Positions 29,966 to 57,483 of a DNA stretch of 60,979 nucleotides are shown piece by piece; within the stretch, counting starts at the first letter, position 1, and each line of letters begins with the position of its first letter. The notes below the pieces were generated by a model. The model did not search any database, had not been told where the DNA came from, and saw only the letters and a program-made list of their open reading frames with translations. The position numbers and the translations under genes are program-made. Source of the stretch: Gekko japonicus (taxonomy: Eukaryota); NCBI RefSeq assembly GCF_001447785.1, contig NW_015160247.1, forward strand, positions 186,001-246,979, in the 5' to 3' direction.

Positions 29966-30432
29966 TGTCAGCAAGCTGCCAAAAGTTCATTCTTGTCTAT
30001 ATGTTCCTCTATGCATCTTCCCCCCCCCTCTGTAGATGCGCTCAGCTTGTCATGCGCACATCTCTCCAGTAGCTCTGCATTCCTTTCAGTATACGCCAGC
30101 CATGCTTTGATGTAACGTTATCTAACTAAGGCCACAGGTGGAAGAGCAAGAGAGCTTTGCTTTGTCTTTAATTAGTAGAGACTGTGAGAATCGTATGCTT
30201 ATTTATAATAAGGTAGCCGTTGCTTTCCCAAGGTTTAAGCGCGCAAGAAACCCTTTGGCCGCGCGCGGGAACCATGTTTATTGGCTGTAATTATTATGAA
30301 TTTGCTTTAACCTTTCCAGCTCTCCGAGCTATCGTTATTCTGAACAGTGACCTGTTCAAGTGCTTCATGGCTTCAATAAAGTAAAACCTTCTTGCAAGTG
30401 TGTACTACGTTGTTTGCTGTGGGGACCTGACA
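29966..30432 (+). mobile_element. Solo LTR
   Basis: TGTCAG...CTGACA termini, internal AATAAA (~30375), 5-bp TSD CACAC; homologous to 49444-49937. Confidence 0.8.
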
Positions 30433-31616: not shown

Positions 31617-31868
31617 TACGTTTGCCAGGTTCCTCCTCCCCCCCGGCCATCAGCGGGGTGTGGAAGGGCAGGGCTGCCAGCTCCAGGTTGGGAAACTCCT
31701 GGAGATTTGGGGGTGGAGCCTGGGGAGGGCAGGGACCTCCTCAGTGGGGTCCAGTGCCAGAGAGTTCGCCCTCCAAAGCATCCATTTTCTCCAGGGGATC
31801 TGATTTCTGTAGTCTGGAGCTGTAATTCCAGGGGATCCCCAGGTCTCACCTGGAGGCTGGCACCCCTA
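31617..31868. mobile_element. MITE of the GGGTTGCCA-terminus family (relatives at ~13100-13350, 13480-13590, 52836-53020)
   Basis: Shared core ccattttctccaggggaactgatctctg...cacctggaggctggcaaccct. Confidence 0.7.
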
Positions 31869-35070: not shown

Positions 35071-35267
35071 TATTCCAGTAGATTCAGACCTCATGGACAC
35101 GGACAGAATGACCTTCTGTCTGTCAGAAGAACTGGACTCAGCAGTAAGAATTTCACTCCCTAGCAGACAAGAGGTGTCTAAAAAGCAGAACTTTCTAGGG
35201 AGGGAATGCATCCCCCCCTCCCTGTCCAAATGCCCTGTCGTTGGTCAAGGCTTAAGGTTTTAAGACC

Positions 35268-35482
35268 CTGACTGGGATAGCCCAGGCTAGTCCAGTCTTC
35301 TCAGATCTTGGAAGCTAAGCAGAGGTGGCCCTGGTTAATACTTGGATGGGAGACCACCAAGAAAGTTCAAGGTTGCTACACACAGGCATGCAATGGCAAA
35401 CCACCTCTGTTCACCTCTTGCCTCAAAAACCATACACGGTTGCCATAAATTGGCTGCAACTTGATGACACTTTCCACCACCA
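35268..35482 (+). mobile_element. 5S rRNA-derived SINE (copies on minus at ~43017-43222, 47812-47924, 51745-51876, and split around the LTR at 49415-50105)
   Basis: Head gatcttggaagctaagcag...ctggttaatacttggatgggagacc resembles 5S rRNA, followed by a non-5S tail ending (cca)n. Confidence 0.8.
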
Positions 35483-36583
35483 AGGTTTTAGAATTCTCTT
35501 AAGGACCCTTTGCCCCAAAGCAGCTTCTGCAATGACCAAAGTGTCTTTTCATAGTTTGCAGAGATTTAAACGGAGGCCCAAGGAGCAGACTTACAAATTT
35601 CCTCCAAGAGAAACCCCCTAACCATTCCCCCTGCCAAAGCAGGTACTGCTGCTCCTTCACCAAAGAAACCAGAATACCTTCAGATAATAAAGGATGGAAA
35701 TGCACCTTCTTCTCCAAGGATGTAAGATTAAAGGAAATGACAGATTCCTGGATTATGTGTTTTATGATGCCATCCTAAGAAGAGTTATACCCTTCTAAGT
35801 CTATCAAATTAAGTGGGCTTAGAATGACATTGGCTAGCATAGCCAATATAGAGTTTGAGAGCTTGGCATACATCCAAGCAGTGCCCATCCCTATTCCTTA
35901 GGTGTAGCCAGGTAAGGACAGAAGGAAGGGAGCAGCAGTTCTCACACCCTGTGAAAATTTGAATTTATCTTCAGACTAAAGAGAGGAGCTGGCTAGAGAA
36001 TACCCCTCTGGAAAATGAACAAATCCCCCCCCCCAAAAAAAAGTCCTTGAAGCTCAAAATGTCCTTGAAGCTAACAAGAACAGAGCCTTAAGAGTCAGGA
36101 TCTACAGAGAGAGCTCCCAGAGGTTCAAAGGATTGTGAGGGATTCCCAGGACTACACCTAGACTCTCTACAGGAATACAACAAACTGGTTGAGGCAAAAT
36201 CAGAGAGGCAGGTGGGAGGAATGTTTTTATGTAGGAGATGTAAAGAGAGGGCAAGGCCTCCAGTTCTTCACAGTTATGCCTGGGAGAGAAGACCCTGGTT
36301 TCCTTAAGAGATTAGGTCAGAGACTTGCTCACCTGTCAGAAACAGCAGAATGCCACATACTGAAGTTGTGAGAGTGGGCTTGCCTGATGAGCCTTTCACC
36401 TGTTGGGAGAGCTTTCATGATGCCAGAAGAAAGGCAATCATCCAGGGCAAACGTACTATCACAACGGTGTCTGCCTCTCAGCTCCCAGGCGATCAACTGG
36501 AATATTCATGCTCTTAAGGGGAAAAGAATCCAATATCTCTGGATGAGGTTAACTCACATTCACATCCACATTCACAGGCATGA

Positions 36584-36785
36584 AACCTCTGAATCCCAGA
36601 GCCAGGAGGCAACATCAGGGGAAAACCTCAGCCTCTATGCCCTGTTGTTGGCCCTCCAGAGGAACTGGTTGGCCACTATGTGAGACAGGATGCTGGACTA
36701 GATGGACCAGATGGACTAGATGGACCAGATGGACTAAATGGACCAGATGGTCTGATCCAGCAGGGCTCTTCTTATGTCCTTATGA
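36584..36785 (+). mobile_element. CR1 3' end with internal 9-bp tandem expansion (tggacYaga)x6
   Basis: tggactagatggaccagatggactagatggaccagatggactaaatggaccaga at ~36694-36747; cttatgtccttatg tail. Confidence 0.7.
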
Positions 36786-37486
36786 GGCCAGAGCTCTTTA
36801 ACTGAAACGGCTACATGGTCAGAGAATAAAATTCTCAGGTGATGTTAAGATGCACAGACTTTGTTCCAGTTCTTGTTTTCTGAAGGAGAGGGAAAGCACA
36901 GCCAGCATCACTGCAGAGCATCAACCAGAGACATTCAGAGTTCTTTCAACCTACTTCCAGACCTTTTGGGTCATTTGCTCATGTTTACAGTGAACAGCTC
37001 CAGTATCAGCACTGCAACCCCAACCGTTGTCTGAATGAATAGCGCCCACTATCTCTAAGGTATGCTCTGCCTTTCCAGCCATCCTGCTCTCAAAATTAAC
37101 CGATATGGATTTGAGCCACTTCTCTGCCAAGTACTTGGCCTAGCTCAGATGTCAGGGGCTAAGGATATGGCCTCCATCTGTATGGCCACAACCTGTGACA
37201 CATTAACCAGGAGTACGGCAGTAAGAGAGTTCCCTTTAAGGCCATCTTTTGAGTGGTCTGATGAACTCCAACATGGCAGGAAGCTTACTGGTCCACATGA
37301 AGGCAGCCCTGGCTTTTGACAGATAAGAACTGACATCCATCTATTTTTATCCATATTTGGATTATGAGTTGCCAACACCATCTCCATCCTTAATTAACTC
37401 CTTCCCTGGGCAGGATGGCTACTTTGTATTCCCCAATACTCAGTCCTAGTCTGAGGAAAACTGGGGTTCTTAGTCTTGGCTACAGC

Positions 37487-37879
37487 CAGGGGTCATTTCC
37501 TGCAGGAGCGCACAGGAGCGGAGCTCCGGCAGTAAAGAGCCCAGGGGGCGGGCACATGCAACAAGCCCCACCCCCTGCTCCCAGCAGCCCTCAGACAGAG
37601 CAAGAAGCAGCCAGGTAAGTTGCAGAGCCCCCCACCCCAAAACAGTCCACTGGCACCTTTAAGACCAAGTTTTATTCAGGTACAAACTCTCCCTCCTTTA
37701 TGAGGGCATATCTGCACATTCCCCCCCCCCCAACAGCTAGCAATCCAAAACAGTCCAGTGGAGCCTGAGCGGTGGGTGTTGCCTTCTGCCACACTTCCGG
37801 TGATGTCAGGGGGTGTGGCATATGCAAATAAGTTGTGCTAATGAGCTCCTGCACCTCTTTTTCTACGAAATGACCCCTG
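37487..37879. mobile_element. hAT-type MITE with 12-bp TIR and 8-bp TSD
   Basis: CAGGGGTCATTT / AAATGACCCCTG; TSD GCTACAGC at 37479-37486 and 37880-37887. Confidence 0.9.
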
Positions 37880-38123
37880 GCTACAGCTAAAGGAGCAATA
37901 TTGGTCGGGTGAGGCAGACGGGCACGCTCCCCTTCTTCTGTGGAAGAAATCCACCTTCAGAGAAATGCTGCTTAGTCCTGCCTTCTGAGTTCAGGTGGCA
38001 GGTCCTAACTCAGTGGTGCATAACTGGCTATCTACAAGGAGAGAAGGCATTTCAGTGGCATTCAACAGAAAACAGACAGACACGTTGATTTAGTCTCGCT
38101 TCTCCCAAACTTATTTTACTTAC

Positions 38124-38243
38124 AATTGTTTCTCCTTTTGGGCGATTTCTTTCTGCAGACTTTCAGATTTACTCATATAGTCTTGCTTAAATCTCTTGTC
38201 CGCATTCTCTGCCTCCATTTGAGCCTTCTCAGCTTGCTGCAAT
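38124..38243 (-). CDS. RUFY2: RUFY2 exon 13 (LQQAEKAQMEAENADKRFKQDYMSKSESLQKEIAQKEKQ)
   Basis: accag| ... TT|gtaagt, 120 nt. Confidence 0.94.
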
Positions 38244-39878
38244 CTGGTGTAATTCAAATCAACTTTGGGTAAAACTGAAGCTAGAATTTGGGTGTAAAGG
38301 ATGAAGAAGACAAATAAAAGGGGAAAAAATGGGGAAATAGAAACATTTCTAAATGAAAACAAAGTTTGGGGTAAAACTCACAAACTCAGATGAGACCCAG
38401 ACAATGACTAGAGATCCAAACTCTTTTTCTCACTACAGCAACAACAACAACAGAGACAACTGTCCAATTTCTCCAATTTTATTTGGTGTTCACAATTAAC
38501 AGATGCCATCTGTGCAGAGCCATATATGAGTCACATGTGCAGAACTTTGAATGTGCATTCTTGTGTTACTGTGAGACTGGCTTCTTTTTTTAAAACAACA
38601 GCAACAGAAAAAAAATGCAACTAATCAGTCCTTAACGGCACAAATCCATCAGCTCCACAAAATGGAATACAAAAGCGTACTGAGGGGCATGATAAAATTC
38701 AGAACACAAAGTGGAACAGTGCAGCCAAGGCAGCGAAAACAGTCCTGTGCAAAGTCAACACAACGTGTGTGAAGTCTGTCACCCTGAATCCAAATCAGTG
38801 CACTTGACATAAGTGAATGCATGAACTTAATTGGTATACTCAGGACTGTGGAGAGGATGGGAGGCAGGCAAGTGTACCCTTAATGTGTTCACGAAGCTCC
38901 CACACCAGTAAGGGCAACCCTCCTTCACTTCAATAGAAGTTTAGCTCTCATCCTAAAGCTGGAGCATCATTTGTGCCTGTAGGGGAGACGGGGCCAGGGG
39001 GATAATAAGGATGACTCTGGACAATTGGGCCAAGAATAGGAACTCTCCGTCTGGGGCAAGGGGTGCTCTGTATTCTTGGTGCTTGGGGGGGGGGCAACAG
39101 TGGGAGGGCTCCTAGTGTCCTAGCCCCACTGGTGGACCTCCTGATGGCACCTGGTATTTTTGGCCCCTGTGTGACACAGAGTGTTGGATTGGATGGGCCA
39201 CTGGCCTGATCTAACATTTGGCTTCTCTTATGTTCTTAGGAACTCTCAGTCTGGGNNNNNNNNNNNNNNNNNNNNNNNNNNNNTCTCGCGCAAGGGATTT
39301 TCTGTCTTCTGGGTGCTGGGGGGGGGCAACAGTGGGAGGGCTTCTAATGTCCTGGCCCCACTGGTGGACCTCCTGATGGCACCTGGTATTTTTGGTCCCT
39401 GTGTGACACAGGGTGTTGGACTGGATGGGCCGTTGGCCTGATCCAACATTGGCTTCTTCTTATTGGCTGCCAGCCTGGGAGCTCCCAAGCAGCTTTCTGC
39501 AGCCTGTCACCAGGGGCCAGCCCGTTCTGGGAAAGACCGGAGGGCTGCACGTTTCTATTTGGTCCCCAGCTCAGGTTGACAAGGAAGGGTCTGAAGGCAC
39601 GCCGGGCATTCAGGAGCTCCACGCTCCTACCTCATGCGTTTGAATTTTTGTTCTGTTGCGGCTGGCCATTCTCTGCTATATCCACACGGGACCACTGGCT
39701 AACAGGACCAGGCAGAAATTTTACCCAAGGCTCTGATTGGCTGATAGGTCTTGGGGCTTTCCCCTTCCCCATAGCAAAGGGTAAATACTGTGCATGTTTG
39801 ACTGTACTGCTAATAAGAGTGTAAATGTCACAACTGGCTACTGGAGTTTAATGCAGGTTGTGCAGGGTGGGCTCCCTG

Positions 39879-40130
39879 TAGGGTTGCCAGGTCTGGGTTG
39901 GAAAATGCCTGGAAACGTTGGGCCCCCAGGGGGAACCCCACCCCCAAAACGAGTCACACGGAAGTGACGCAAGCACGTCGGGGATGTTGGGGGCGGGGCC
40001 ACAATCATCCGAGGGAAACTCTATGGTTTTCCCTCGGATGATTGTGGCCTCGGCGGCGCGCACGCACGAAGACTCCCGGAGCAAGGCTGGACTCCCCCGC
40101 TCCGGAACAGGTAAGCACTTGGCAACCCTA
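39879..40130. mobile_element. MITE with TAGGGTTGCCA TIRs
   Basis: tagggttgcca ... tggcaacccta, CpG-rich interior. Confidence 0.75.
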
Positions 40131-40664
40131 TGATGTTCCCAGTATACTAACAGAAGTCATTCGTAATGGACATTTTTCAGGCCTTAAAAAGTATTCTATT
40201 TAACTCAAAAGACTATTTGCTGTATTTGACTACTACACCACAATCCAATAAAAAGTACCATGTGAATGTTATCTACAGTTTTCAGCAAACACAGAATAAA
40301 ATTATGCTAGCTGAATTTTGAAATTTGTTTTGACTTTTTGAAAGGAGTAAGACCTTTTTAAAAGAATGTTAATTCTGACTGCTAAAGAATAAAATATTAA
40401 TCTTTGGGGAATATTTCTGAAAAACAAACTCATATCTGTATCAGAAACAACGACCAATTAGAATGCCAGATTTGTCAAAATGATTCTGCTACATGTATAG
40501 CTTGACCCACAACCCAATATAGCCAAAATACGTGAACAACAAACTTAAGTCCAAGCATTATGGCTTTTAAAAACCAGGCTGCAATTTGAAACTTCAAGCA
40601 TTTTTTAAAAATTCCCACAAATATTACTCCTTCATTATCAATTTAAAGAGTCAGAAGTTGTTTC

Positions 40665-40773
40665 TCAAAATGATATATGATGTTCCCCCTTGTACTGCGG
40701 CTGCCCTTCATTGCCGGCACATTTCATGAGGGACGTGGCAATAGTTCTTGTCTGCGTTAATAATTCTTTGTCA
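40665..40773 (-). CDS. RUFY2: RUFY2 alternative terminal exon (FYVE-less isoform): SDKELLTQTRTIATSLMKCAGNEGQPQYKGEHHISF*
   Basis: Acceptor catctgaag| in phase with exon 12; resembles the RUFY3 short-isoform tail SEKDLVKQAKTL (from memory). Confidence 0.75.
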
Positions 40774-41162
40774 CTTCAGATGTGCAATGGACAAAATAAT
40801 AAAAAAATAAAGATAATAAAAACATTTAACAATGTAAAAGTTGGGATAAAGGAGAAAAGAAAAAGAAAAAGAGGAAAAATGATGTCAATAAAAGAATACT
40901 CATGCCACTACCACTTCAATACAGAATTATGTTTCTTGTCAAGTAGATTGAAAAGAAAAACAATGGAGAGACGTGTCAACAGCCACACGATGGGCCTCTG
41001 TCAGCTGACATTTTATATTTTGCAATTCAGAAAACTAACGAGGCATGTAAACCACCACTCTGGCATATCCTCTGCGATTTCAGGTGTTGTGCACTGCACA
41101 CAATGTTACATTTATATATTCAGTTGGTATCACATTTCATTTGTTAATACAGACTGCAGAAT

Positions 41163-41217
41163 TCAGAGAGGGACTTTATCTGCATCGAGGTCTCGTACAC
41201 ACGTTAAGACCTCCTTC
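41163..41217 (-). CDS. RUFY2: Candidate second alternative terminal exon of RUFY2: RKEVLTCVRDLDADKVPL*
   Basis: Acceptor ttgttttcgcccgttcaaag| in phase with exon 12; locally retained CpGs. Confidence 0.4.
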
Positions 41218-41737
41218 CTTTGAACGGGCGAAAACAATGCCACAAATCGTTTTGGGGACTCTCCTCAGTTTCAAATGCACATTCTATGAGGTGGGGGAGG
41301 GGGACGCTCCTTTTCAAGGAACATGAGTCTAAATACAGCTGAGCTCATGGAGCTCTCTGCACAATTCACTGGATTGGCTCCAAAGGAGCCCTCCCAAAAG
41401 TAGGAAGGACCTTCCACTCACACAAGGGGGCGGGGTAGGGTGGGAGGGTCTGTGATTCCACTGACTGAGATACAGCCCCCCCCCCCATGCTACATCCCAT
41501 GTTTTTTCCAAGGATTTCCTGACCACCCTTTTTTTAAGGGGTTCTGGAAGCGATGGAGGACCAGGGGAGGCTGGAGGATCCATTCTATGGGCAGAGCTCC
41601 TGCCTCCAGTTCTTATGATCCAGCCCTTGGCTCTACTATTTAAATCAAATAATATTTACAAGTTATTTTTACTCCAGCAGAAATTCTGGGGCTCTCCAGA
41701 ATTTCTAAGCATTCATGCTTAGCTTTAAGTATATAAG

Positions 41738-42300
41738 CATAGACCCACCAGATCAGACCAGTTGCGTTGTAGCTAGTCCAGTATCCTGTTTCACGCAGTG
41801 GCCAACCAATTGCCCTGGAGGTCCAAACAAACAGGGCAAAGAGGCCAAGACCTTCCCCTGATGTTTACTGCCTCTGAATGTGGAGGTTCCCTTAACTCAC
41901 CATGGCTAGTAGCCATCGATGAACCTCTCCTCCATGATTCTAACCCCCTTTTAGCCATCTATACCATCACTATGTTTACTGGCAGTGAACTGCACAATTT
42001 AAATACTTGTTGAGTAAAGAATTATTTCCTTTTGTCTCTCCTGTACCTATTGCCCATCAATATCATTGGGTGCCCTCAAGTTCTAGTATTATGGGAAAAC
42101 TCCCTTTATCCACTTTCGTGACACCATGCATGACTTTATAAACCTCTACCATGCCCCCTCCCCAGCTGCCGTTTCTCTAGACTGAAAAGTCCCAGACTCT
42201 CTTCAGCCTTTCCTCATAGCAAAGGTGCTCCAACCCTTGGATCATCTTGGTTGCTTTCTTCTGTACTTCTTCCAGCTCTGCAATATCCTTTATGAGATAT
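41738..42300 (-). mobile_element. Decayed CR1 LINE 3' fragment
   Basis: Minus strand ...gcagagctggaagaagtacagaagaaagcaaccaagatgatccaagggttggagcacct, CR1 ORF2 C-terminus. Confidence 0.75.
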
Positions 42301-43744
42301 TAGCAACCAGAAGAAATTAGGTTTACTTTGGTTGATTGGGGGTTCACTGAATAGTGGTAATGTGCAAAACAAAAACCAGGAAACAAAGTGGTTCCTGATT
42401 GACTGGCAAGGAGCCTCGTGCTGCTTCCACACCAAAGTTTTTCTCCACCTCGGCTTCTAAACTGGAGTGTTTTTTTCCCTGACATGACACCACGCTGCAA
42501 CTGTTTTCTTTCCAGGTTTTCTCCATTCTCAATGTGCTCTTTGCCAAAAACTGCCTTATTCTGATCTTTTTGAAAACGAACACTGGCTCAGCACATTTAT
42601 TGTGCTATCTGAAAGGAATGGTGCACAGTCTGGCTCATACCGGCACCATTTTCCCGCCATGTTTTGCCCACTGCACCAAAGAAGGGCTTTTTGCAGTCCT
42701 TTTGGTTTCATCAGTAATTGATATTACACTATAGCGCTATTATATATTTCCATTTGCAATTTCAGTTCCTCTGAATTCCCAGTTCCGATTTTTTTTTAAA
42801 TGAAATCTCCTGGTCTTTTTATTGAGGAGATATAACAGTAAAGGTGCAGACAGTTTTTGTCCAGGTTACCTGGAAAACAATGGAGACAGGAAGCTGCAAG
42901 ATGGCTGGAGTACAGTGGGAATTTCCACCATGCAGCAATTTATCCAAATACTAGATAAAAGAAATGAAAAGGGCAGAGCTACACTTCACATGGAGGGATG
43001 GTATTTGTATGTCCACGGTGGTGGTGGTAAGCGCTGTCAAGTTGTGGCTGACTTATGGCAACCCCATAGGGTTTTCAAGGCAAAAGACGTTAGAGGTGGT
43101 CTGTCACTGCCTGCCTCCGTGTCATGAACCTGGACTTCCCATCCAAATACTAACCAGGGCTGATCCTGCTTAGCTTTTGAGATCTGATGAGATCTGGCTA
43201 GCCTGGGCCATTCAGGTCACAGCTGTATGTCCATTTTGCACTATAGTATTAGTGCATGAGTGAAGGGAAAAATGGTGGTGATGGCAAATCACCATGGCAT
43301 CCATGATGACCATGCTCCCCAAAAGCCGGTGTGGAGTTGTAGCAGAGCATGCACGGAAAAACTGAAAAAAGATGGAGGAAAATTTGCTAGAAACTCCCCT
43401 CTAGGAGCTCTGTTGGCAACATGCACACGGCTGCACTTGCAGCAACAGTTAAAGCAAAAGTGGAGAATCCTTGCCATGTGGAAGCAGCCTCAAAGATAAA
43501 TGTAGAGTTTCAGGAACAGGCAATAAAGCAAGGAGATATGAAAGTTGAAAAGCCTGAATTGTGATTGTATTCAGCCTTCTCTTGCACGTATCACATTTAA
43601 GCATTTTTTAAAAGTCAGCAGAAACACGTATTCTGGTCCTTCTTCAAAATTACATCATGCTTGATGGTAATATGGTAAGTGAAAGAAAGGAAGAAAAATG
43701 AAGAAGAAGAAGAAGAAGAAGCAAAATAAAACAAGATGTTGCAC

Positions 43745-43842
43745 CTTTGTTCCAGTTGCTTCATAGTTGCAGTGATCTGACTAGTCTTATTCTCCAGACG
43801 ACCAATTATTTCATTCTTCTCTTTCAGGGCATCATCAGATCC
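43745..43842 (-). CDS. RUFY2: RUFY2 exon 12 ([32 protein letters not shown])
   Basis: aatag|GGA ... AAAG|gtgcaa, 98 nt. Confidence 0.92.
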
Positions 43843-44164
43843 CTATTATTAGAGGGATTAATGGATATTTATTAGAAGAATATTATATCTCTCTTCAATC
43901 TTGATGTATATTAGCCTGCATAACAAAGTTTCCGGATGAGCCTCTAGCACACTGCTGGTACTATATCCATGTTCAGGAAATAAGACAGTAGCTATTAGTC
44001 CACATGCATCCTATAACCCAGATTATCAGAAGGAGGGAGGGCAAGAATGAACTGCTCAAGGGGCAGGGAGACAAAAATCAGTACTCTGCCAGCTTACTGA
44101 GTCCATCCCACCTACAGCCATGTATACTTTCATTAATCTTGCCAGTTGTTGACAGAACTTTTAC

Positions 44165-44332
44165 CTGCAACTTTTGGTACATCTCTATATTGATTGCTTT
44201 GACTTCCTCCAATTGTTGCCGCAGACTTATAAGGGTATCTTGTTTTTCATGTATATCTTTCTCCAGCAGCTTCATGGCAAGTTCTATCTCATGCTTCATA
44301 CCAACTTGGACCATCAGCTCATTCTCTATATC
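44165..44332 (-). CDS. RUFY2: RUFY2 exon 11 ([56 protein letters not shown])
   Basis: ttgtag| ... CAG|gtaaaa, 168 nt. Confidence 0.96.
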
Positions 44333-44904
44333 CTACAAGATGCAAAATAAATACATTTCACTCAGCATAAAGACTGTCAAAGAGTGATTGTTACACTCAG
44401 TCAGTCTGGATGCATTCAGAGGTACCATTTCACAGTTAAGAAGCTATATGGGATTCTCTGAACTGCCTGCACGTTCCTCCCAAACAACAGTGAGCTGATA
44501 CCGGTACACTTACGTAAAAGCAAAGTTATTTTCTCACCCAAACCTGTTTGTACTGTCATTCAGTGCAAATTGTTCAAAAGAATTTTGTCATGGAGATGTG
44601 GTGGTAATGCCATACCAACATTACTTACCCACCCTACCCACTTTTCTAGGCTCAAATCCCATCCTTCCACCATAGATTGCATAGATTGCATAGATACCAC
44701 AATTACTGCCTGCAGTCCTTGAAATCTTCTCCCTATCCTTGCTCCTGTGTCCAAGTCTCACAGTCTCAGCCTGTGACTACCATGGTCCTGAAGCTGGGGG
44801 GGTCTGAAGCCGCTTCTGCAAACAGCTATCCTTTCGATAGGCGGACACGCAAGGAAAGATGGGTAGTTCATGCGCAGCACTCAGTCATCTCCACAGGTCA
44901 CTTG

Positions 44905-45110
44905 CAATGTTCCCTCTAAGCTGTGGAATCTTGTGAGCAAAAATTCTTCTTTGTGAGCTGCTGGCATCAAAGTTGTGAGGGAGCGATTTGGCTGCTGCAT
45001 AAATTAGTGTGCTCTGGAGCCACCCTTCCTGAGCTAAGACAAAATTGTGTGAGCCGGAGGCTAAAAAACTGTGAGCTAGCTCACACTAACTCAGCTTAGA
45101 GGGAACACTT
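44905..45110. mobile_element. hAT-like MITE
   Basis: TIR caatgttccctctaagctg / cagcttagagggaacact. Confidence 0.75.
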
Positions 45111-45218
45111 GGGCAAGAAACCCCCGTCAGTAGATACACAGCCCACCAACAAATAATGCCCCCCGAGCCATTTCCAGTCAGGAATACAGCATGGGGGGAG
45201 GCTAAAGACCATCCCCAC

Positions 45219-45253
<35 letters not shown>

Positions 45254-45873
45254 ATCACAGTGGTTCTGCCAGGAATCAGGGCCCTGTCAGTGTTTGGGAA
45301 ACGAGTTCCCTTGCAGCTGATGTGTGATTGTTAGAGTCAGTTCGGGGAAACACAGACACAACGCAATAAAATGCATAACATGTAATTTGGGCCAAAGTCA
45401 CCCGGCATGCTTGAGTTGTGGCCCCATGCTGTGTAAGCTATCATGTGAGGTATGGGTGTCCTCACAGCAGTATATATAATGCTTAGATGCGCTGTGATCG
45501 TTTGCAGACTTGGCTGGAAATCTAAGAGGCACCATGGCTGTGTAGGAGCGGTGAGAAGCCTATGGGGTGATTTGTTTACACTACCACTGACTTTAGGCGG
45601 GAGTGCCCCCTCTTTCATTGGTGTAGCATAATGTTGACAGAGGGGGGATTAGGATGCTGATAAAGTTCTGTTCCTCCCCCAGAACAGCTCCAGGGTCACT
45701 GGTTTCTGGCACCCTATACTGGCAGCAGGTTAGACAAGGTGTTGGCAGGACACGAAACCAGTATATCCACTTTAAATTGAGGTAGGGTCTATAGTTGCCA
45801 TCCTAAGCAGCACCAAAGAGGCTTTAAGATTACATCCTAAAAACAAAAGTCAGTATATCTGGCATACACTCAC

Positions 45874-45990
45874 TTGTCGCAACTGTGATTCTTCCCGAAG
45901 TTGTCTGTGTGCTTCATTGTACATTTCATCCAGGCTCTGTCTGGAGTGCTTGTATGTCTGGAGTTCTGCTTCAGCATCCACTTTGTTCAC
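45874..45990 (-). CDS. RUFY2: RUFY2 exon 10 ([39 protein letters not shown])
   Basis: tcacag| ... CAA|gtgagt, 117 nt. Confidence 0.95.
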
Positions 45991-47097
45991 CTGTGAAGAA
46001 AGCAATGTACTCTCACTTAAATCTTGTACTTTAGCCCAGTGGTCTTCGGTCCATGGGCTGGGACCCCCTGGTGGGCTGCAGAGCTCCACCTCCTGGGTCA
46101 TGGGGTCCTAAAAAGCTGCCATGTTATAGTAGCTTTTTGGAAGGATTTGCTGCTAGTGCATCTGGGTCAACAGCCAGAAGACCAAAGGCTCCTGGCCTCT
46201 CTTTGAAGGTGTGGTGGAAAGAAACAGCAGGAGAATGAGGTGAGGACACTCAGAGACGGAGAAAACTTTTCCTTACCATAGACAAGTTCAGAGAATCCCC
46301 CCCCTACAAAAGCTTTACCTTGCCTTCTTTTTCTTCCCTTGTCCCCCTGCTCCCCTCCAAGACTCCATTGTGCACTTGCAGCACAGAGTTTCCCTCCTCG
46401 CTGATGGAGTCATCATAACTCTATTCCCATCATCCCCTCTCATGTGACTCTGTTATCATGTGACTTCTTGGGATCTAGCTGCTGCCTGGGCATTGAAAGT
46501 GGGTCCCAGTTTTGGAAAGGATGAAGACCACTGCCTTCACCAGTTAAAAAAGGGAGGCCTCTCTCTCTAGAGAAATAGAAAGAAAGCACTTTTCTAACCT
46601 TTTCCGTTTGCTCAGACAGTAGCAGGAAGGCAAAAATGCCATACAAGGGCACTCTTCTGAACCAACACATGAAGCTGTGTGTGCATGCTGACAGTCAGTA
46701 AGGCAATACACACCAAAACTACTTTTCCACATGGGCTCCATTATCTCTATTTTGGTTTTCTTCATGTTCCCAGACAACAGCATGTACTGAAAGGCAAATC
46801 CTCTCTCTTGGTTTTGTTTTCTTACTTCTGGGAAGTTGATTTCTTGGCATGAACATGCTCACTGCAAGATCCTCTTTAACTATAATATAAAACTGCTTTA
46901 AAGGGGGCAGATATACCCCCGACTATTTTAACTGATCATTTTCACCAATTGAGCCGTCTGTTTGGATGTTTCCTATTTCATCCAGCTGTTCCCAAGGTGG
47001 TGAAAAAGTAACACAGCTCCTGTTGGGAGAAAGAATGAGCTCTCCTCTCATCCTCACCTAAGTGAATACCAGATTATTTGGGTCATATCACACATTA

Positions 47098-47324
47098 GGT
47101 AAAGGTTCCCCTTGCTCGAAAGCCAGTCGAATCCGACTCTAGGGATATGGTGCTCATCTCTGTTTCCAAGCCGAAGAGCCAGCGCTATCCAAAGACATTT
47201 CCGTGGTCATGTGGCCGGCATGAGTAGCCGCTGAGGTGCACGGAACGCTGTTACCTTCCCACCGAAGTGGTATCTATTTATCTACTTGCAATTTCTTGCT
47301 TTCAAACTGCTAGGTTGGCAGGAG
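47098..47324 (-). mobile_element. 5'-truncated Sauria SINE with 12-bp TSD
   Basis: ggtaaaggt tail, ttccgtggtcatgtggccggcatg...gctgttaccttcccaccgaagtgg body; TSD TATCACACATTA at 47086-47097 and 47325-47336. Confidence 0.88.
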
Positions 47325-48013
47325 TATCACACATTACACAGCAACAAACTCAAGTCTACCATTAATAGTATAATTGGTAGGAAGTTGAAGTCAACTTTGG
47401 CACAACAGGTGATGTGAAAGACCTCTACCCAAGACCCTGAGCAGCTGCTGCAAGTCACGGAAGACAATGCTGACCCTGAAACACCGATGACCTGATTCAA
47501 TATAAGACAGGTTCATGTATTCAGTATCACCCTTCCCCCTTTATAGTTTGGAAACTACCATATTCATTAAGATTTATTAATGAACAGTCTAGTAGACTTG
47601 ATAGCAGGCTTTAAAACGAAGCAACTCATAAGACAATATTTTCCAGACAAAATGCATTTAAACAATTGTTTTCTAAAATCTTCATCACAAAACTTTTACT
47701 TCTATGTGCCAGGTTTCTTTGAAACACAAGCCACACCCCATTTTTTACATTTGCTTATTTACACTATTTTCAGTCTGAGGGTGATTTGGCAGCTGCATCC
47801 ATCACCCCATTTGGTGGTGGAAGGTATCGTTAAGTAACAGCTGACTTATGGCAACCCTGTTGGTTTTTCAAGGCAAGAGACACTCAGAGGTGATTTGCCA
47901 TTGCCTGCCTCTGCGTAGCAACCCCAAAATAAAATTATACATTGGTAAATAAACAGTAACCAGGCATCACTCCATTTACAGTAGTCAAACCATAATAACT
48001 GGACTCTTAATAC

Positions 48014-48115
48014 CTCTAGATGCCGCTGTGTTTTCATTAAAATGAGTGTATTCTCGCTTCTTAAGTGATGGTTTTCTTCTTGAAGTTTGATGATGTTATT
48101 TTTGGCTATTGCTAA
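48014..48115 (-). CDS. RUFY2: RUFY2 exon 9 ([34 protein letters not shown])
   Basis: ttcttag| ... GAG|gtatta, 102 nt. Confidence 0.95.
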
Positions 48116-48995
48116 CTAAGAAAGAGGCAGAACAAACAAAAAAGGAAAGTTAAAAACATTTAGAGGAATGCGTTAAAAACAGTTATTCTGAGGTATAAGA
48201 CGACACAGATAGAACTGGTCTCCTAGAAGATGTTTAGGTGCTCCATGTATGAACATGTTTAACAACAAAGACTTAATCCTTGTATTTGTCAGTAGTATGC
48301 TATGGAAAGTGGGTTAAACAAAAAGAAAACAATTTTAGATGTCCATGTTTGTAAATAAGGTTCAGCATAAAGCACTCTCAGAAGACACAGCTCTAAAAGA
48401 ACATTCCAAGTACTGCTGCTGTATAATAACCAAGCATAAAATCTCTGGGTAAACGGACTACCAGAATGGAGAATTGCTTAAAGGAACTTTAATATGAACA
48501 GCAATTAAAAACATCTTGTACAGCAATCTCTGAGACCCCTGCTCTCGAACTAAGATCACGTTATTACAGGACAAGTTCACAAACCCCCAATTCTTTAACA
48601 ATGTAAAATATAAGTGTATGCCTCTGAACTGTAGATTCTATTACTATACTACACATTTCAAGGAAGATGTTCTGCACAAGCCCCTCCCCCCAATTAAATT
48701 TAAAGATATTCTGAGAGAGGAAGTAGCTGGTGGCCTGTACACATTATCATCTCCATTTCATACCGTAGTTATATCTAACTTAAATGACTATTTTGCAAAA
48801 TCAATACACATAGTTAACAAGATCAGAATTCTACTGGAGATTTGAACATGTGGGGGACCAGACACAGATTTTATCCTCACCGGATTTTCAGTAATCCACA
48901 AGGCACCATATGGAAAGGGTTACAGGCAAATTGGCTTTTCTGAAATTAAAACCACTCTTTCAAAATAAAATTATACATTGGTAAAAGGCAGTTAC

Positions 48996-49065
48996 CTCTT
49001 CGATTAGCTTAGTGTTTGACTTCTCTAATGAATCGACACGTGAGTGGAGGCTGCTGACTGTGCTA
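48996..49065 (-). CDS. RUFY2: RUFY2 exon 8 ([23 protein letters not shown])
   Basis: ttttcag| ... GAG|gtaact, 70 nt. Confidence 0.95.
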
Positions 49066-49443
49066 CTGAAAACGACAAAAAGAAACCCTCATTAAAAATT
49101 ATGTCCCCTATTGAAGAAGTGCTATGCCACTTACAGAACTTGCTGGCACCTGAGTTCAATGGGGCTAGGGCAGTGTCTGGTAAATCTGGGCTAATCAGGT
49201 TTCCCAGATGTACATACACTTGTATTTAAAGATGTGACTATATCTAATGTCAATACATTACGTATTTGCTGCAGAAAAACAACATCTTGTACGACGGCAT
49301 TAAGCTTCAGGCAATGCAAACAAGGGGTTTCCCCCTCATCATGTTCATCGGAACCTAATTAGACAGTCTTAATCAGATAGATTGTATGCCAAACTCCTCA
49401 TAGTACAAGGTAGGATAAAGTGTGCCTTCGAATCGCATCCTAT

Positions 49444-49937
49444 TGTCAGCAAGCTGCCAATGTGTCTTTCCTATGTGTATTCTCTATGCCCTACCCCCCC
49501 CCCCATTGCCATGGTGAATATAATCAGCTCGTGTGCGCATGTCTACCCTCACTCTCATGCGCTCATCTTCTCCTAGGCTGCATTCCTTTCTATGTACGCT
49601 AGTCTTGCTTTGAAGAACCTTATCAGTACAAGGCCACAGGTGGTGAGCGGCAAGAGGCTTATTGCTTAGTCTGTAATGAACATGTAGTATGGGAATAGTC
49701 TAATTGTTTAACTGTATGGAACCGTTGCTTCTCAGGGTTTGGGCACGCGATGAGCCTTCTGAGCGGGAGCGGGAAACATATCTATTGGCTAGTGTGATTA
49801 TGAATCTGCTTTAACCTATCTGTCAAACGCACGTCTCGTTATTCTGAACAGAGAATCTGTTCTAAGTACTTCATGGCTTCAATAAAGTAAAGCCTTCCTG
49901 CAAGTGTGTACTTCATTGCCTGCTGTGGGGTCTGACA
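49444..49937 (+). mobile_element. Solo LTR inserted into a 5S-derived SINE
   Basis: TGTCAG...CTGACA; 5-bp TSD CCTAT (49439-49443, 49938-49942); internal AATAAA at 49881. Confidence 0.85.
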
Positions 49938-50357
49938 CCTATTCATGGTGACCCCTTTTGGGGGTTTTAAAGGCAAGAGATGAACAGAGGTGGCTTGCGT
50001 GACAGTGCCTTCCCCTGCAGAGCCATCCTGGCCATCCTCGGTGGTCTCCCATCCAAGCACTGGCCCTTCTTAGGTTCCCAGCTGGGACGAGATCAGGCTT
50101 GCCTCGGCTGCTGGACCTGCCACCCCTTCCTCGTACCCTCAGGTTCAGAAGAGAGAAGGGGTGCCTTTCCCACGGTGAAATCCCTTCCAGCGTCACCCTT
50201 CCCAAGAGCCAGCCATTAAAAGGAGCCAAAGCAAGAATGAAAATGTCAGAGTCTGGTTCTGTAGTGGAAAAGGCATCATTTTACAAGGAGAATTATATTT
50301 TTTAAAGTGAGGATACCTCTTCTATAGACTTTAACACACCACTGGATATATACTTAC

Positions 50358-50423
50358 TTCAGCTGTCGGTTTAATTCTTCAACGTAATTCTTTTGATCCA
50401 ATATAGCAGCAATATGGTCATTT
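50358..50423 (-). CDS. RUFY2: RUFY2 exon 7 (NDHIAAILDQKNYVEELNRQL)
   Basis: RUFY family motif LDQKNYVEELNR; 66 nt; canonical sites. Confidence 0.95.
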
Positions 50424-50511
50424 CTATTAAAAAAAGAGTTGAAAGCCTATTTAATCAGACATTTATTCGAGCCCTTGAAACTGCAGCACAGGAGTGTTTA
50501 TTTAAAGACTC

Positions 50512-50586
50512 AGAGTCCAGTGGGGCACCCTTAAGACCAACAAAGGTTGATTCAAGGTATGAGCTTTCGTGTGCAAGGCACACTTG
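50512..50586 (-). mobile_element. Truncated Penelope-like terminal fragment
   Basis: Minus strand AAGTGTGC-ctt-GCACAC-GAAAGCTC-ATAC, a hammerhead 3' half lacking CTGANGA. Confidence 0.6.
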
Positions 50587-51351
50587 ATCTGGGTCTATTT
50601 AAAGACTGTACTTTAAAGTTCTACTACCAGATAGTTATAATCCAAATCATTGCATAGTTTTAAAAAATTGGGGTACAGGTTCAGGCACAGAATAGCTTTG
50701 TTTTACAAAAGCAGAATGAAACGGTTGACCAACTGACCCTTTCCAACAGGCACCCCAAAAGAACTGGGGGGGGGGTTGGAATGGGTGGATATGGGGTGGT
50801 TCCACTAAAAATGGTTAACAGATTCCTAATATGCAACAGCACCAGACTGAGCTAGATATTTCATCTCTGCTGCTACTCAGTGGTGGGCTCAGGGTAACGG
50901 GACCTCAGAATCACTCTCCCCACACACCTAGCTGTTGTCACCGGGATCCAAGCAAGGGGTCCTCCTTGCCTTCATATGAGGCAGGTGGAAGCTACCCCCA
51001 GAAGTTGGCTGCCTGAGCCTTAGATGGGCCAGGACCCAGTAACCGCTGCTGCTGACCTGGATGGTCACGGGTAACAAGGCTGTGGGCAAGAAACCCCCCC
51101 CCCCAATGGAGCCAGGGTAACTTCCTCTGTTGCCCATTGGTTACAACTGCCCTCGCTACTACTATTTTGTGATCTGAACAATTCTTTTTACTCCCAGTCC
51201 CTCTGACTTTTCCCCCTGCAAAGCCTAGCAGAAACAAGCATTCTCCTTTACTAAGCTTTAAATGGATCCGTTTGTTAAAAGTGTTAAAAACACTGGATTT
51301 TTTTAAACAAGCAATTCAGTTCAGCATACTACAAATTCCAGTGTAACACAC

Positions 51352-51413
51352 CTTTCTTTGCTTTCAGTATCATCTTCATTCTTCAAATACATAGAGAAAT
51401 CAATCACACCAAC
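51352..51413 (-). CDS. RUFY2: RUFY2 exon 6 (VGVIDFSMYLKNEDDTESKE)
   Basis: ttctcag| ... AAAG|gtgtgt, 62 nt. Confidence 0.95.
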
Positions 51414-52071
51414 CTGAGAAGAAATAGGTTTATTCACACTTTGGAAAAGAAAGGAAGAAAGGGTATGATCTTCATTCTTTCGACAGTACTGGAAATTTAA
51501 TCAGTGGACTGCGAAATTCCACATTATGAATAACAACTGTGTTACTAATAATGTAANNNNNNNNNNNNNNNNNNNNNNNNNNNNNNNNNNNNNNNNNNNN
51601 NNNNNNNNNNNNNNNNNNNNNNNNNNNNNNNNNNNNNNNNNNNNNNNNNNNNNNNNNNNNNTTTTCTGAATCAGAGAACAAGCAAGTTATTTTTGAGATG
51701 TTCTTCATTTAATCACTTTAATCAAAGTCCAACATCACTTTTTTTTGCCATCAAGTCACAGCCGACTTATGGTGGCCCCGCAGGGTTTTCAAGGCAAGAG
51801 ATGTTCAGAGGTGGTTTGCCACTGCTTGCCTCTGTGTAACGACCCTGGTACTCCTTGGTGGTCTCCTTTCCAGATCTCCCTGAGCTGGAGCAAGCAACAA
51901 TACAGGGCTCTTTCTCATCTATTTTCAAAGTTGTTGCATTTTACTATTTTCCCAGCATTTACACCTTTCTAATTCACTGGTCTTCTTCTGACAGCAGAAA
52001 CTATTTTCCAAAACTGACTGGGGAAAGCATGCCAATCATGTAATTGTTTGGTGTGTCGCAGATATTACAAG

Positions 52072-52417
52072 TAGGGGTGTGCAAAAAAAATTTTTTTGGT
52101 CCAATTCGGATTCGGCTCAATTGGGCAGAATCAATTTCGGCCAGCAGAAAGACTCCCACATGTCGATTTCGGCAGTAGGAGCAGATTGGGGAGTCTTTCG
52201 GCCAGCCGAATGTCAATTTCGGCCCCATTATATCCTATGGGCCATTGAAGTCAATGGCAAAAACACAGGGTATATTCTGGGGGCTGGAGGGAAAGGGGTT
52301 TGAGGGAGAGGCTCCAAACTCGCAGGGTAGCTGCTGGAGCCTCTCCCCAAGATACCCACCAAGTTTCAAGAACATTGGACCCCCTTGTTCAATGTTCTTG
52401 AAACTTGGTGGGTATCT
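52072..52417. mobile_element. Truncated non-autonomous DNA transposon ending in a perfect 28-bp fold-back
   Basis: Begins taggggtgtgc with ttcgg subterminal repeats; 52350-52377 is inverted at 52390-52417. Confidence 0.6.
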
Positions 52418-53119
52418 GCATGCATAGCAACTAACACAGCTGTACCCGCTACAGCAAGGCACCCCCCCACACACACACACACAACCACCATCCTCTGTGC
52501 CATGAAGACCAAATACTGAGCACTCCTTTTATTCTCGGAGAACGCATACAGGATAATCTTCCAAACAGCGTGCCTCTGCATGGTTTCATGAATAAGCCAC
52601 ATGTTTCCTGAGCAAGGAATTTACTCATGTGCCCTCCCAACCAATGTCATCTGTAGAAGCAAAAATGTTACGAATCAGCAGTTCTTACATGTTTTCATTG
52701 TGTTCCAAGGAAATGAGTCTATTTTGTTCAGGGAAGAGCAATCCTTTTATAGACTGAACTGAGCCAAGAAGTTATGCTTGTATGTTAAAGAAGCCCATTA
52801 AAGCTTTTAATGTTCCCACCTGCCACCCTAGCCAAAGGTTGCCAACTCCAGGCTGGGAAATTTCTGGAGATTCAAGGCGGACCTTGGGGAGGGGGTATAA
52901 TGCCACAGCAGCATCCAAAGCAGCCATTTTCTCCAGGGGAACTGATCTCTGTACTCTGGACATCAGTTGCAATACCTTCCCAGGAGATCTCCAGGCCCCA
53001 CCTGGAGGCTGGCAACCTTACCTGAGCATCATGCTCAAGCAACAACATATTCCATATCTCCAAAATGAAGTGGAAAATCTTACTGCAAGATCCTCACTGA
53101 TAACTTTGTATTCACTCAC

Positions 53120-53243
53120 TTGTGAGTCCAAGTCTTCTCCTTTCACACACAGGTTGGCATCTATTACATTCAAGCCAACGAGCAAGCCAACGATGACGAC
53201 GCCTTCCTCTTCCATCATCAGGGCGTGATATTCATAAAATTCA
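53120..53243 (-). CDS. RUFY2: RUFY2 exon 5, RUN domain ([41 protein letters not shown])
   Basis: tgacag| ... CAA|gtgagt, 124 nt. Confidence 0.96.
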
Positions 53244-54326
53244 CTGTCAAAAATACACTGCTTCTTAAAAACTAGTTTTACAGCAGGACACACATTTTAA
53301 TACACTTTAGAACAGGGTTTTTTTTAAAAGAAAGAAATGCCTCTCAATCAATCCTCTAATTGATTTCACTACTGATATCCAAAGTGATTCTAAAAACCAG
53401 GCAAATCACAATGGATTTTAGAATAGGGCTGCTTCATAGAAGCTGAAACTACTCCCATGGAATACAAATAGAGTTAGTTTTTCTTCAAACAAAAAAGGGC
53501 GCAAACCAACCAACAAAATTAAGAATTCCTAAGACTCCTTTATATCAATAGAGTTATAGTGCAGTCCGAAGTGGAGTTACACCGATTCTAAGCATATTTA
53601 CTTCAAAGTACTTAGAAGGGTATAACTGCTTAGAATGGCACACTTAAACATATAAGATGTTTACATTTGTCTGGAATCAACCAAAGTTTTTAACTCACAT
53701 GGCTACAGAGAACGGTCAGAAGACGTTTGGGCCTAATGTTTAAAAATATCGAAATGGGGTAGGGGAGGGGGAGCGGCTATTCAGGAGATAGCGCTTAACT
53801 CAAACACAAATCCCATTCGCACACAGTCTGTACACGTCTGCACCCCACTCTTCAGCAGACACACGCCCCCCCCATCCATAAGAGAACACAGAAACAAAAG
53901 TTCTGAGTTCTGCAAAAAGCTATACAATTTTGCATTCTGTAAGCGATTCAGTGCTACTTTTGTTTATGCTGGGGGCTTGGAGCATTTTCAATAACTCAGT
54001 TTAAGTAACAAAAGCAAGTGTTACTGAATCCTGAATTACTGTCCATCACTAACTATACTGAAATACAACACAAGTATGTAACTCAGTTTAAGTAACAAAA
54101 GCAAGTGACACATTCAGATCTGCTGTGGTATAAAGCAACTTAAATTGTAAGACTTTTGTATCAGCGGAAACTTCTCTCTCTCTCTCTCTTTCTCTCTCAC
54201 CTTCAAATGAATCCTGAATTACTGTCCATTACTAACTATACTGAAATACAACACAAGTATACTATTATGGCAGCAGATACGGAAATGACCTTAATTTTCC
54301 TCACAGGCTTCTAGACTGGCCCTCAC

Positions 54327-54428
54327 CTGAGAAGGTCTCTCCGAATGATGAGACATCGTAGATAGTCCGCCATCTTTTTTTGCATCAGTGCCAATCGTAA
54401 CCAAGCCCGAGCACGTCCCAATGGAGTC
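54327..54428 (-). CDS. RUFY2: RUFY2 exon 4, RUN domain ([33 protein letters not shown])
   Basis: RUN motif [11 protein letters not shown]; 102 nt; canonical sites. Confidence 0.96.
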
Positions 54429-55567
54429 CTGATAAAGGAAAGGAATAGCTCAGAAAATAGCCAAACATGAACTAGACATCAGGTCGATCCCACATTCTCC
54501 TGTAAACAGATGAGAGAATAATTTCTGCAGCTCCCCCTTCCCACCTGAAAACCCCCAGTGTCACATCCCATACCATTCTTAAGGGTCCCTATCCTCCAAA
54601 GTGGCTTCTCAAGGTGTGGAAGAGGCTGTAAGAAGAAGGGCAAGATAGAAAAGCAGGGAAGCGCAAGGGGAAACTCCTCTTGAAACTCCTTAAATCAAAC
54701 CCATAGTCTTGATGGCAGTCAACAGCTTTCTGGTAAGGAAATTTGAAGCCCTCACCCAAAAAACCTCTTTGTATTATCTATTTATTATCTATTTATTATT
54801 TTCAATTTGTATCCCACCTTGCCAGAGAACCGGCAAGGCTACACAAGACAATAAAATCCCAATCATAACAGATCTTTTCTAACAAAAAAGATACCATGTT
54901 GCACCATTGTTTTTTCTGAGGCAACTATTTAAAAGTAAGACTCCAACTGTTTAGATTCAGGTTTCGGAACAGTTTTCAAGATATTAAATTATTCTGCCAC
55001 CAGAAGGGGGAAGCAGCCAAAGACTCTTTCCAGAACAAGCTCCATTCAAGCAAGAGTGAGGGTAGGATAATTGCAGCCGATATCCACTCCAACCCGCATG
55101 CCATTACTGTTCCAGAGGGCTCTCAGCTATCATCAGTGGCTTTTCACGAGCTGTGAGAAAGTAAAATTGCTTGTGTGAACTTGCTCTGTTTGCTTTGCCA
55201 TCACACTGTAATTCACTGGGAAATACTGGGTAGTGAAATCAGGAGAGGAGGAGTTAAAAAATCAGGAGACATATCTGGTATCATGGCTTGATTCTGATAG
55301 TGCTATTGAAATACTGGTTAAACTCTGGTTAAATTCAATAAAGTATTATTAGCAAAAAAAATTAATCTGATACATGCAACCGCTTAATACTTAAGCAGAT
55401 TTTTAAAAATGAAGTTTTCTGATGTTTGATATTTAACTTATAATATATGGATCCCTATCCCAGTAGGTCTCATAATGCAAGCAAGAAAAGCAAAGGTGCA
55501 GGGAGCAGGCAAGGCACAAATACTGTTCAATGGGTATAAAGAGATCTTTGTTAGCGACACAACTTAC

Positions 55568-55685
55568 TTGAGTCCAGGTAAGTCTCGCACACTGGCAGCG
55601 ATCTCCTCAGCTTCTGGGTACAGTTTCTCGACAAGCTCCAAAGGGCCCCAGATCGTTTTATTGTAACTTAGAAAAGATTTTCTTA
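55568..55685 (-). CDS. RUFY2: RUFY2 exon 3, RUN domain ([38 protein letters not shown])
   Basis: tttctag| ... AA|gtaagt, 118 nt. Confidence 0.96.
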
Positions 55686-56210: not shown

Positions 56211-57427
56211 AAAGATAAATCACGGCTGGTCAGGATCCCGCTTATTCCAAGTACGTCAAAAGAAAAGAGAAACAGCAAGGACACATGAGCCAACAGCTAT
56301 ATTTAGACATCACAAACTAACCATGATTTAGATGAAGATGGGTAGCCATGTTAGTCCGTCTGTAGCAGTAGAAAAGAGCAAGAGTCCAGTAGCACCTTAA
56401 AGACTGACAACATTTCTTCAAATCTGTATAGCTGTATCTTCTTCAGATACAGCTATACAGCTAGAATCTGCATCTGAAGCTGTATCTGATGAAGTGAGCA
56501 GTAACTCACAAAAGCTCATACCCTGCCACAAATTTTGTTAGTCTTTAAGGTGCTACTGGACTCTTGCTCTAACCATGATTTGTTTGTGATGTGAATGAGA
56601 CTGAAGTTCTTGCATTTGCTTCCACTGCCCCAGGCCCCAGGCACATCCTGCCAGGACTGATAACTTTTATCTAACCACAGTTTGTTGGTTGCTGTAGATT
56701 TTCCGGTTTGTGTGGCCGTGGTCTTGGCATTGTAGAACATGACATTTCACCCGTAGCTGTGACTGGCATCCTCAGCTGTATAACACAGAAAGATGGAGTA
56801 CTCTCTGTGTCAAGGATGTCAACCTTGACACAGAGAGTACTCCATCTTTCTGTGTTATACAGCTGAGGATGCCAGTCACAGCTACTGGTGAAATGTCAGG
56901 TTCTACAGTGCCAAGACCACGGCCACACAAACCGGAAATTCTACAGCAACCAACAAACTGTGGTTAGATAAAAGTTATCAGTCCTGGCAGGATGTGCCTG
57001 GGGCCTGGGACAGTGGAAGCAAATGCAAGAACTTCAGTCTCATTCACATCACAAACAAATCATGGTTAGAGCAAGAGTCCAGTAGCACCTTAAAGACTAA
57101 CAAAATTTGTGGCAGGGTATGAGCTTTTGTGAGTTACTGCTCACTTCATCAGATACAGCTTCAGATGCAGATTCTAGCTGTATAGCTGTATCTGAAGAAG
57201 ATACAGCTATACAGATCTGAAGAAATGTTGTCAGTCTTTAAGGCGCTGCTGGACTCTTGCTCTTTTCTACTGCTACAGACGGACTAACATGGCTACCCAA
57301 CTTGATCTAAATCATGGTTAGTTTGTGATGTCTAAATATAGCTGTTGGCTCATGTGTCCTTGCTGTTTCTCTTTTCTTTTGACGCACTTGGAATAAGCGG
57401 GATCCTGACCAGCTGTGATTTATCTTT
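56211..57427. repeat. 1,217-bp palindrome: 605-bp arms, 7-nt spacer (56816-56822)
   Basis: Manual arm-to-arm comparison gives 12 substitutions and no indels; contains Penelope-like termini. Confidence 0.97.
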
Positions 57428-57430
57428 ATT

Positions 57431-57483
57431 TTTAGCCATATTCAATAAATTTGCTCGTTCCACTGCTGTGGGGTCTTTCACAG
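57431..57483 (-). pseudogene. RUFY2: 5' fragment of RUFY2 exon 2 (VKDPTAVERANLLNMAK), truncated by the palindrome
   Basis: Poly-T acceptor at 57484-57496; homology stops after MAK; expected [11 protein letters not shown]...HGLK and the donor are not found. Confidence 0.9.

Follow-up and report, generated by a model that had tools for sequence, protein, structure and literature searches.

A 1.2-kb palindrome in place of part of RUFY2 exon 2 in a Gekko japonicus draft contig and the likely origin of the exon loss in assembly error

The window, meaning the whole stretch of 60,979 nucleotides from Gekko japonicus contig NW_015160247.1 that was analyzed, carries exons of RUFY2 on its minus strand. 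RUFY2 is a trafficking protein whose RUN domain binds Rab33A, according to the available text of PMC7431699. A downstream exon from the window retrieved RUFY2 proteins, and the exons for the RUN domain, the coiled coil, and the FYVE domain match named RUFY2, which identifies the gene as the RUFY2 ortholog. The features that bear on the analysis are as follows.

21480..55685, minus strand: 15 downstream RUFY2 coding exons, all with AG/GT splice sites and no stops, 503 codons
28806..38123, minus strand: interval from which a second RUFY2 exon is missing (about 43 residues, critical for frame), with no N run
55568..55685, minus strand: RUFY2 exon 3, intact
56211..56815, no strand assigned: left arm of the palindrome, continuous with its left flank
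56330..56568, no strand assigned: small self-inverted element that includes a hammerhead-like stretch and is bordered by an 11- to 13-bp direct repeat resembling a target site
56741..56775, minus strand: degenerate hammerhead-type core, left copy, with helix II broken by the arm difference at 56752
56816..56822, no strand assigned: 7-nt spacer, itself palindromic with one mismatch; the innermost perfect stem is 63 bp per side
56823..57427, no strand assigned: right arm, an inverted copy of the left arm that occupies the place of the 3' part of exon 2
56863..56897, plus strand: degenerate hammerhead-type core, right copy, in which helix II, with its bulged base, is paired
57382..57390, minus strand: predicted cryptic donor-like site (CAA/GTGCGT) whose use would produce a stop-free exon of 96 nt that joins exon 3 in frame
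57428..57432, minus strand: outer junction, an A-run with 3 nt of exact microhomology and no N
57431..57483, minus strand: 5' end of RUFY2 exon 2 (53 nt) with an intact acceptor, lacking the remaining 121 nt and the donor

The palindrome is centered on position 56819, and its presence in the sequence, far beyond chance, is confirmed. Its arms of 605 bp each differ by 12 substitutions (7 transitions and 5 transversions) and by no indels. The inner 133 nt fold at a z of -23, a value equaled by 0 of 200 shuffles, and among the 39 inverted repeats found in the window the palindrome far exceeds the rest in length and in perfection, the runner-up having 139-nt arms at 86% identity. Ungapped similarity between the arms extends to 56206/57432 with 1 extra mismatch, which leaves the outer breakpoint uncertain within a few A's. 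A previous sequence-only reading had described the same arms, 7-nt spacer, and 12 indel-free substitutions, and all of these were reproduced at the same coordinates. Its remark that several of the differences fall at CpG sites applies to 3 of the 12, of which only 2 are transitions. No open reading frame of at least 90 codons overlaps either arm, and the left arm is probably native RUFY2 intron 2. A MITE-like hairpin whose arms share a perfect run of 36 bp lies just left of the palindrome at 56008-56156, and natural-looking inverted repeats are found at 29271-29560 (139-nt arms, 86%) and 21-328 (117-nt arms, 91%).

On the minus strand, the right arm adjoins the first 53 nt of exon 2. Ortholog residues and splice phases give a full length of 174 nt for this exon, and the earlier estimate that about 120 nt and the donor are gone agrees with the 121 nt and donor that we find absent from the window. 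The Lys codon of exon 2 occupies 57433-57431, and the right arm does stop 3 bp short of it, as had been stated. No trace of the missing part was found in the window in tblastn searches with two ortholog pieces (best E of 0.08), and a SIKG-like stretch at 57573 was rejected as an exon 2 remnant because its E of 1.3 is that of a chance match. The 40 lost residues are invariant in all eight squamate orthologs aligned and lie in a region that matches the solved RUFY3 RUN construct. A 101-bp direct repeat (57563-57663 and 57822-57922, 4 differences, 158 bp apart) lies immediately upstream of exon 2 and may be a further allelic duplicate or belong to an older rearrangement.

Translation that continues from exon 2 into the right arm yields 26 residues and then a stop. 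The sequence-only reading had reported this peptide and its stop, which were reproduced. The cryptic donor predicted at 57387 would preserve the frame, so truncation by read-through need not be the sole consequence; the length of exon 2 is also a multiple of three, and skipping of the exon is in frame too. The imperfect microhomology previously noted at the junction is exact over 3 nt, but it is weak, as 6.5% of 20,000 random 15-mers align equally well. The junction peptide had no match among 1.84 billion representatives and was found in 0 of 3 exact look-ups, which together constitute a weak negative.

The rest of the gene appears healthy. Private changes in the window affect 3 of 503 residues, none of them among residues 11-139 that make up the remaining RUN domain, and the corresponding values in four other geckos are 2/381, 7/463, 6/503, and 9/503. 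Under neutral drift for the time that corresponds to 1% divergence per arm, a mean of 11 changes is predicted (P of 0.012 for 4 or fewer), and a stop codon arose in half of the runs of the same simulation of RUFY2. For the RUN exons, the probability of no change under neutral drift is 0.08 to 0.12. Because exon skipping and the cryptic donor would both leave the frame open, the absence of decay is a strong test only for these RUN exons. Taken together, the coding sequence suggests that the gene is otherwise under purifying selection and is not decaying.

A second RUFY2 exon is missing as well. This exon is present in other geckos, and its loss shifts the frame of the intact FYVE exons. No trace of it was found in the window (best E of 0.05), where N runs occur only at 9748, 39256, 51557, and 60380. 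With two exons gone without an N gap and the remainder intact, the simplest reading is that the sequence drops real exons unmarked. The window also holds, at 40668-40775 on the minus strand, an alternative terminal exon of a short RUFY2 isoform that is 81% identical to the Heteronotia X3 end.

The exons in the window are 100% identical to those of the named RefSeq model of G. japonicus RUFY2 (P0015), which itself has no exon 2. Instead, P0015 has an ad hoc first exon that lies within the left arm (56349-56322), and it fills the frame at the second lost exon with an ad hoc exon of 30 nt (36587-36558), and it uses neither the predicted cryptic donor at 57387 nor the remaining part of exon 2. Since the model shares both odd exons with the window, the sequence it derives from had the same lesions. 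In a comparison with P0010, P0013, P0039, P0210, and P0211, only P0015 and the window lack the residues of exon 2 and the 43-residue exon further downstream. Among the best 120 of 736 matches, P0015 alone is a same-species RUFY2 that carries the species-specific residues at 100%, and a fragment search gave two short matches at 85% among 68 candidates, which were set aside. No other G. japonicus RUFY2 record was found among the listed members of the protein clusters (15 of 60 for the largest cluster), and no same-species protein with a full exon 2 was found among the records listed, which is a weak negative. A literature search for RUFY2 and gecko returned no report of such an exon loss.

The differences between the arms carry information on their history. 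Comparison with a relative of the element at 56330-56568 located at about 28.3 kb and with internal repeats covered 5 sites and resolved 4 of them, placing derived bases on the left arm at 56334 and 56421 and on the right arm at 57300 and 57244, while site 57248 could not be polarized. In addition, the left-arm base at 56752 is derived as judged by helix pairing. Derived bases on both arms fit either two alleles or two aged copies, and they rule out one-sided, error-prone copying. Mismatch spacing along the arms is indistinguishable from uniform (KS p of 0.45), so no boundary of a seed can be drawn. With coalescent variance included, the probability of 12 or more differences in 605 bp is 0.03 at a heterozygosity of 0.5% and 0.16 at 1%. 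In another gecko, heterozygosity is 0.5% according to the accessible part of PMC12142722, and no figures for heterozygosity or assembly completeness in G. japonicus were found in the literature searched.

The center of the palindrome holds sequence of the hammerhead type. Two of the 5 matches in the window to the minimal core (CUGAnGA...GAAA..UH) lie there, against a chance mean of 0.81, and the 5 matches include two mirror pairs. Rfam produced no matches at the gathering score and 44 subthreshold matches of hairpin type, none of them hammerhead. The departures common to both cores look like CpG decay, and the cores resemble decayed Penelope pLTR ends, a likeness that makes Penelope a candidate family only. 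The Penelope label is tentative for both the central element and the small self-inverted one. No open reading frame for a Penelope reverse transcriptase (RT) or GIY-YIG domain was detected. When read against the available portion of PMC4209133, neither core has the G10.1-C11.1 pair, helix I, or palindromic positions at 15.2-16.2. Four short motifs were absent from the accessible supplements of PMC11167929.

The sequence-only reading had proposed that a natural inverted pair of Penelope-like ends occupies the center. The hammerhead-type cores are indeed present, but they are degenerate and share their departures, so a pair that existed beforehand is only putative; the right core may be part of the duplication itself. 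That such a pair, with arms of about 130 bp, served as the seed of the palindrome is unproven, given that divergence in the proposed seed does not differ significantly from that of the rest of the arm (4/142 versus 8/463 mismatches; Fisher p of 0.49). The small element at 56330-56568 was duplicated whole into the right arm. Its relative elsewhere in the window spans 28256-28470 and includes a full core match at 28349-28380.

The likelihoods that we attach to all of the readings below are judgments rather than computed values. We consider it likely that the loss of RUFY2 exon sequence is an assembly error, since a gene whose remainder looks fully functional makes such an error likelier than true gene loss, and we lean moderately toward the palindrome itself being fabricated. 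According to the available text of PMC4673495, the published G. japonicus draft rests on Illumina reads that were assembled by means of SOAPdenovo (k=29), SSPACE, and local filling of gaps, and it has a contig N50 of 21 kb. The mechanism that we favor, with a little better than even confidence, is a gap-filling walk that reversed direction at a hairpin and duplicated the left arm using bases of the other allele. In the animal, intron 2 would contain one copy of the 605-bp sequence, a short natural hairpin near 56819, and more intron, followed by a whole exon 2; if the gap was filled to its estimated size, this intron would measure roughly 1.6 kb. The short-read de Bruijn draft would have had a gap here; the gap-filling walk would have entered the hairpin, exited on the opposite strand, run back along the left arm while taking the other allele at heterozygous sites, and joined the next contig inside exon 2 without an N. 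We infer the allelic nature of the arms, the size of the natural hairpin, and the making of the outer join.

A toy diploid model that contained a short central hairpin only was explored with a greedy walk at k=29 (40 runs per stem length). The walk folded back in 10 to 16 of 40 runs at stems of 28, 29, 40, and 142 bp, in 2 of 40 at 27 bp, and in none of 40 at either 20 bp or 63 bp, the latter being the observed inner perfect length. A turn of this kind by an assembler walk is thus possible in the model and not guaranteed. The walk displayed 3 to 12 (mostly 5 to 9) of the 12 planted differences. With about half of them shown, the 12 differences observed would need a local heterozygosity of 2 to 4%, and about 4% under random allele choice. 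Compared with the 0.5% of the other gecko, the 2% divergence of the arms is high for alleles and counts against the favored mechanism. At the outer junction, the model produced 3 junction k-mers in 280 runs, which we attribute to chance in the random filler. The real junction offers no overlap usable at k=29, so a join without overlap must be assumed. Five other inverted repeats that were checked have innermost perfect runs of at most 17 bp, and a natural stem of 28 bp is therefore not typical.

Published accounts describe comparable behavior. Inverted Penelope structures often trouble short-read assemblies, according to the accessible text of PMC8557442, and the available portion of PMC9516828 reports that false duplications occur in regions of 1.5- to 1.8-fold higher heterozygosity and that an N gap may be lacking after a wrong, unsupported gap fill. 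Elsewhere in the window, a 479-bp tandem duplication (2478-3439, 1 difference) and a perfect 56-bp tandem duplication (8788-8895) likewise have no N. The former is possibly an unmerged contig overlap, and both may be N-free mis-joins; with 1 difference in 479 bp, the longer duplication is significantly less diverged than the arms with their 12 in 605 (Fisher p of 0.009). Two 146-nt copies at 90% identity lie on either side of a 28-N gap (39086-39463) and are presumably tandem LINE 3' ends. A weak Pfam RRM_1 match marks an RRM-coding exon at about 12659-12982 on the plus strand, in a neighboring gene that is probably HNRNPH3, and a Pfam search of four repeat-like open reading frames gave no match.

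The sequence-only reading had offered two origins, an assembler crossing strands at the center and a real fold-back synthesis that rejoined in exon 2. The former is better supported by the absence of decay, the second N-free exon loss, and the derived bases on both arms, whereas the latter requires the loss of the 40 invariant residues. Left out were the in-frame splicing options and two further explanations. One of these holds that a real, old, and wholly intronic palindrome aged to 2% divergence and that a separate N-free mis-join dropped intron sequence together with the 3' part of exon 2, so that RUFY2 is intact in the animal. We regard this as unlikely, if worth serious attention. It accounts for the divergence, the derived bases on both arms, and the intact gene, and the second N-free exon loss shows that such deletions occur here. 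A small, imperfect loop is also typical of hairpin priming in the available text of PMC7467729. Nevertheless, it still needs the overlap-free join, and no other inverted repeat in the window exceeds 139 nt in arm length. Long palindromes that are close to perfect and have only a tiny spacer are unstable, which also counts against this reading; the available abstracts only link inverted repeats to instability. The other omitted explanation is a chimera of two real alleles, one intact and one with an inversion (or a homologue switch primed by an inverted repeat) whose breakpoints lie near 56211 and within exon 2. At the central hairpin, the assembler would have switched alleles, in which case the outer junction would be real and heterozygous and the palindrome perhaps not. 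Only this reading jointly explains the clean, N-free junction, the full allelic divergence between the arms, and a coding sequence that is intact, yet it demands a rare exon-breaking allele that also spans the hairpin. The microhomology is not beyond chance, and the unmatched junction peptide weakly disfavors a real junction. We consider such a chimera improbable.

A fixed or common fold-back duplication with deletion, in which synthesis primed by a hairpin copied 605 nt before rejoining within exon 2, would assemble identically if both palindrome and junction were real, and the 7-nt spacer provides the small central loop. The gene would survive by exon skipping or through the donor predicted at 57387, both in frame, with about 15 new residues in place of 40 RUN residues. 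We give little credence to either the event or this mode of survival. The lost residues are invariant in the orthologs, the remaining RUN exons are unchanged, the cryptic donor and the exon 2 remnant both go unused in the RefSeq model, and the second missing exon needs a separate cause. The arms, moreover, are not identical and carry derived bases on both sides, unlike the product of a recent event. Because fold-back arms begin identical, a difference of 2% implies that the structure persisted for millions of years. Still less credible is the more elaborate version in which an aged fold-back at a decayed Penelope-like end removed the 40 RUN residues and the donor at 57387 was recruited, adding about 15 palindrome-derived residues and placing a 605-bp RNA hairpin beside that donor. 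Finally, the whole 1.2 kb could be viewed as a foldback-type transposon with long terminal inverted repeats inserted in exon 2, as its long inverted arms and the Penelope-like pieces within them might suggest. However, its outer flanks, read by eye, show no direct repeat, the window holds no second copy of the arm ends or center, the arms have no open reading frame of at least 90 codons, and the 3' part of exon 2, which should follow beyond the far end of an insertion, is absent. This extremely improbable candidate was rejected because neither a target-site duplication nor dispersed copies are present in the window.

If the exon losses are errors, as we consider likely, the draft yields false losses of RUFY2 exons without N gaps, and these have been inherited by the public model P0015. 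Scans for gene loss and for palindromes on short-read squamate drafts accordingly need read checks. If the junction is instead real, it would represent a rare fold-back event in the germline, one that rewires a trafficking protein of high conservation. None of this amounts to a new kind of system; what is new is the predicted in-frame cryptic donor at 57387.

The arrangement resembles the false heterotype duplications described by Ko et al. (2022; PMC9516828, available text) in its adjacent, near-identical copies, allele-like divergence, damaged gene model, and origin in a short-read draft. Unlike those cases, the copy here is inverted, replaces sequence, and has no N gap between the copies, and the word "invert" does not occur in the main text of that report as available. 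Like the foldback inversions of Li, Putnam, and Kolodner (2020; PMC7467729, accessible portion), the palindrome has a small-loop central hairpin and a second junction that returns to distal sequence. In contrast to those inversions, however, the arms here differ by 2% with derived bases on both, and homologous recombination accounts for most of the secondary joins reported there, whereas the homology here amounts to about 3 nt.

The central cores share with Penelope pLTRs, which carry minimal hammerhead motifs and occur with inverted, 5'-truncated copies, the CUGAnGA...GAAA core, a bulged base, a long helix II, and an inverted arrangement, as far as the available parts of PMC4209133, PMC8557442, and PMC11167929 describe them. 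They differ from the elements in those sources in that RT and GIY-YIG reading frames are missing, the G10.1-C11.1 and 15.2-16.2 positions are altered, and helix I is lacking. Most of each arm, moreover, is probably host intron rather than element sequence. The gene around the palindrome is like other gecko RUFY2 genes, with RUN and FYVE domains and an exon-by-exon match.
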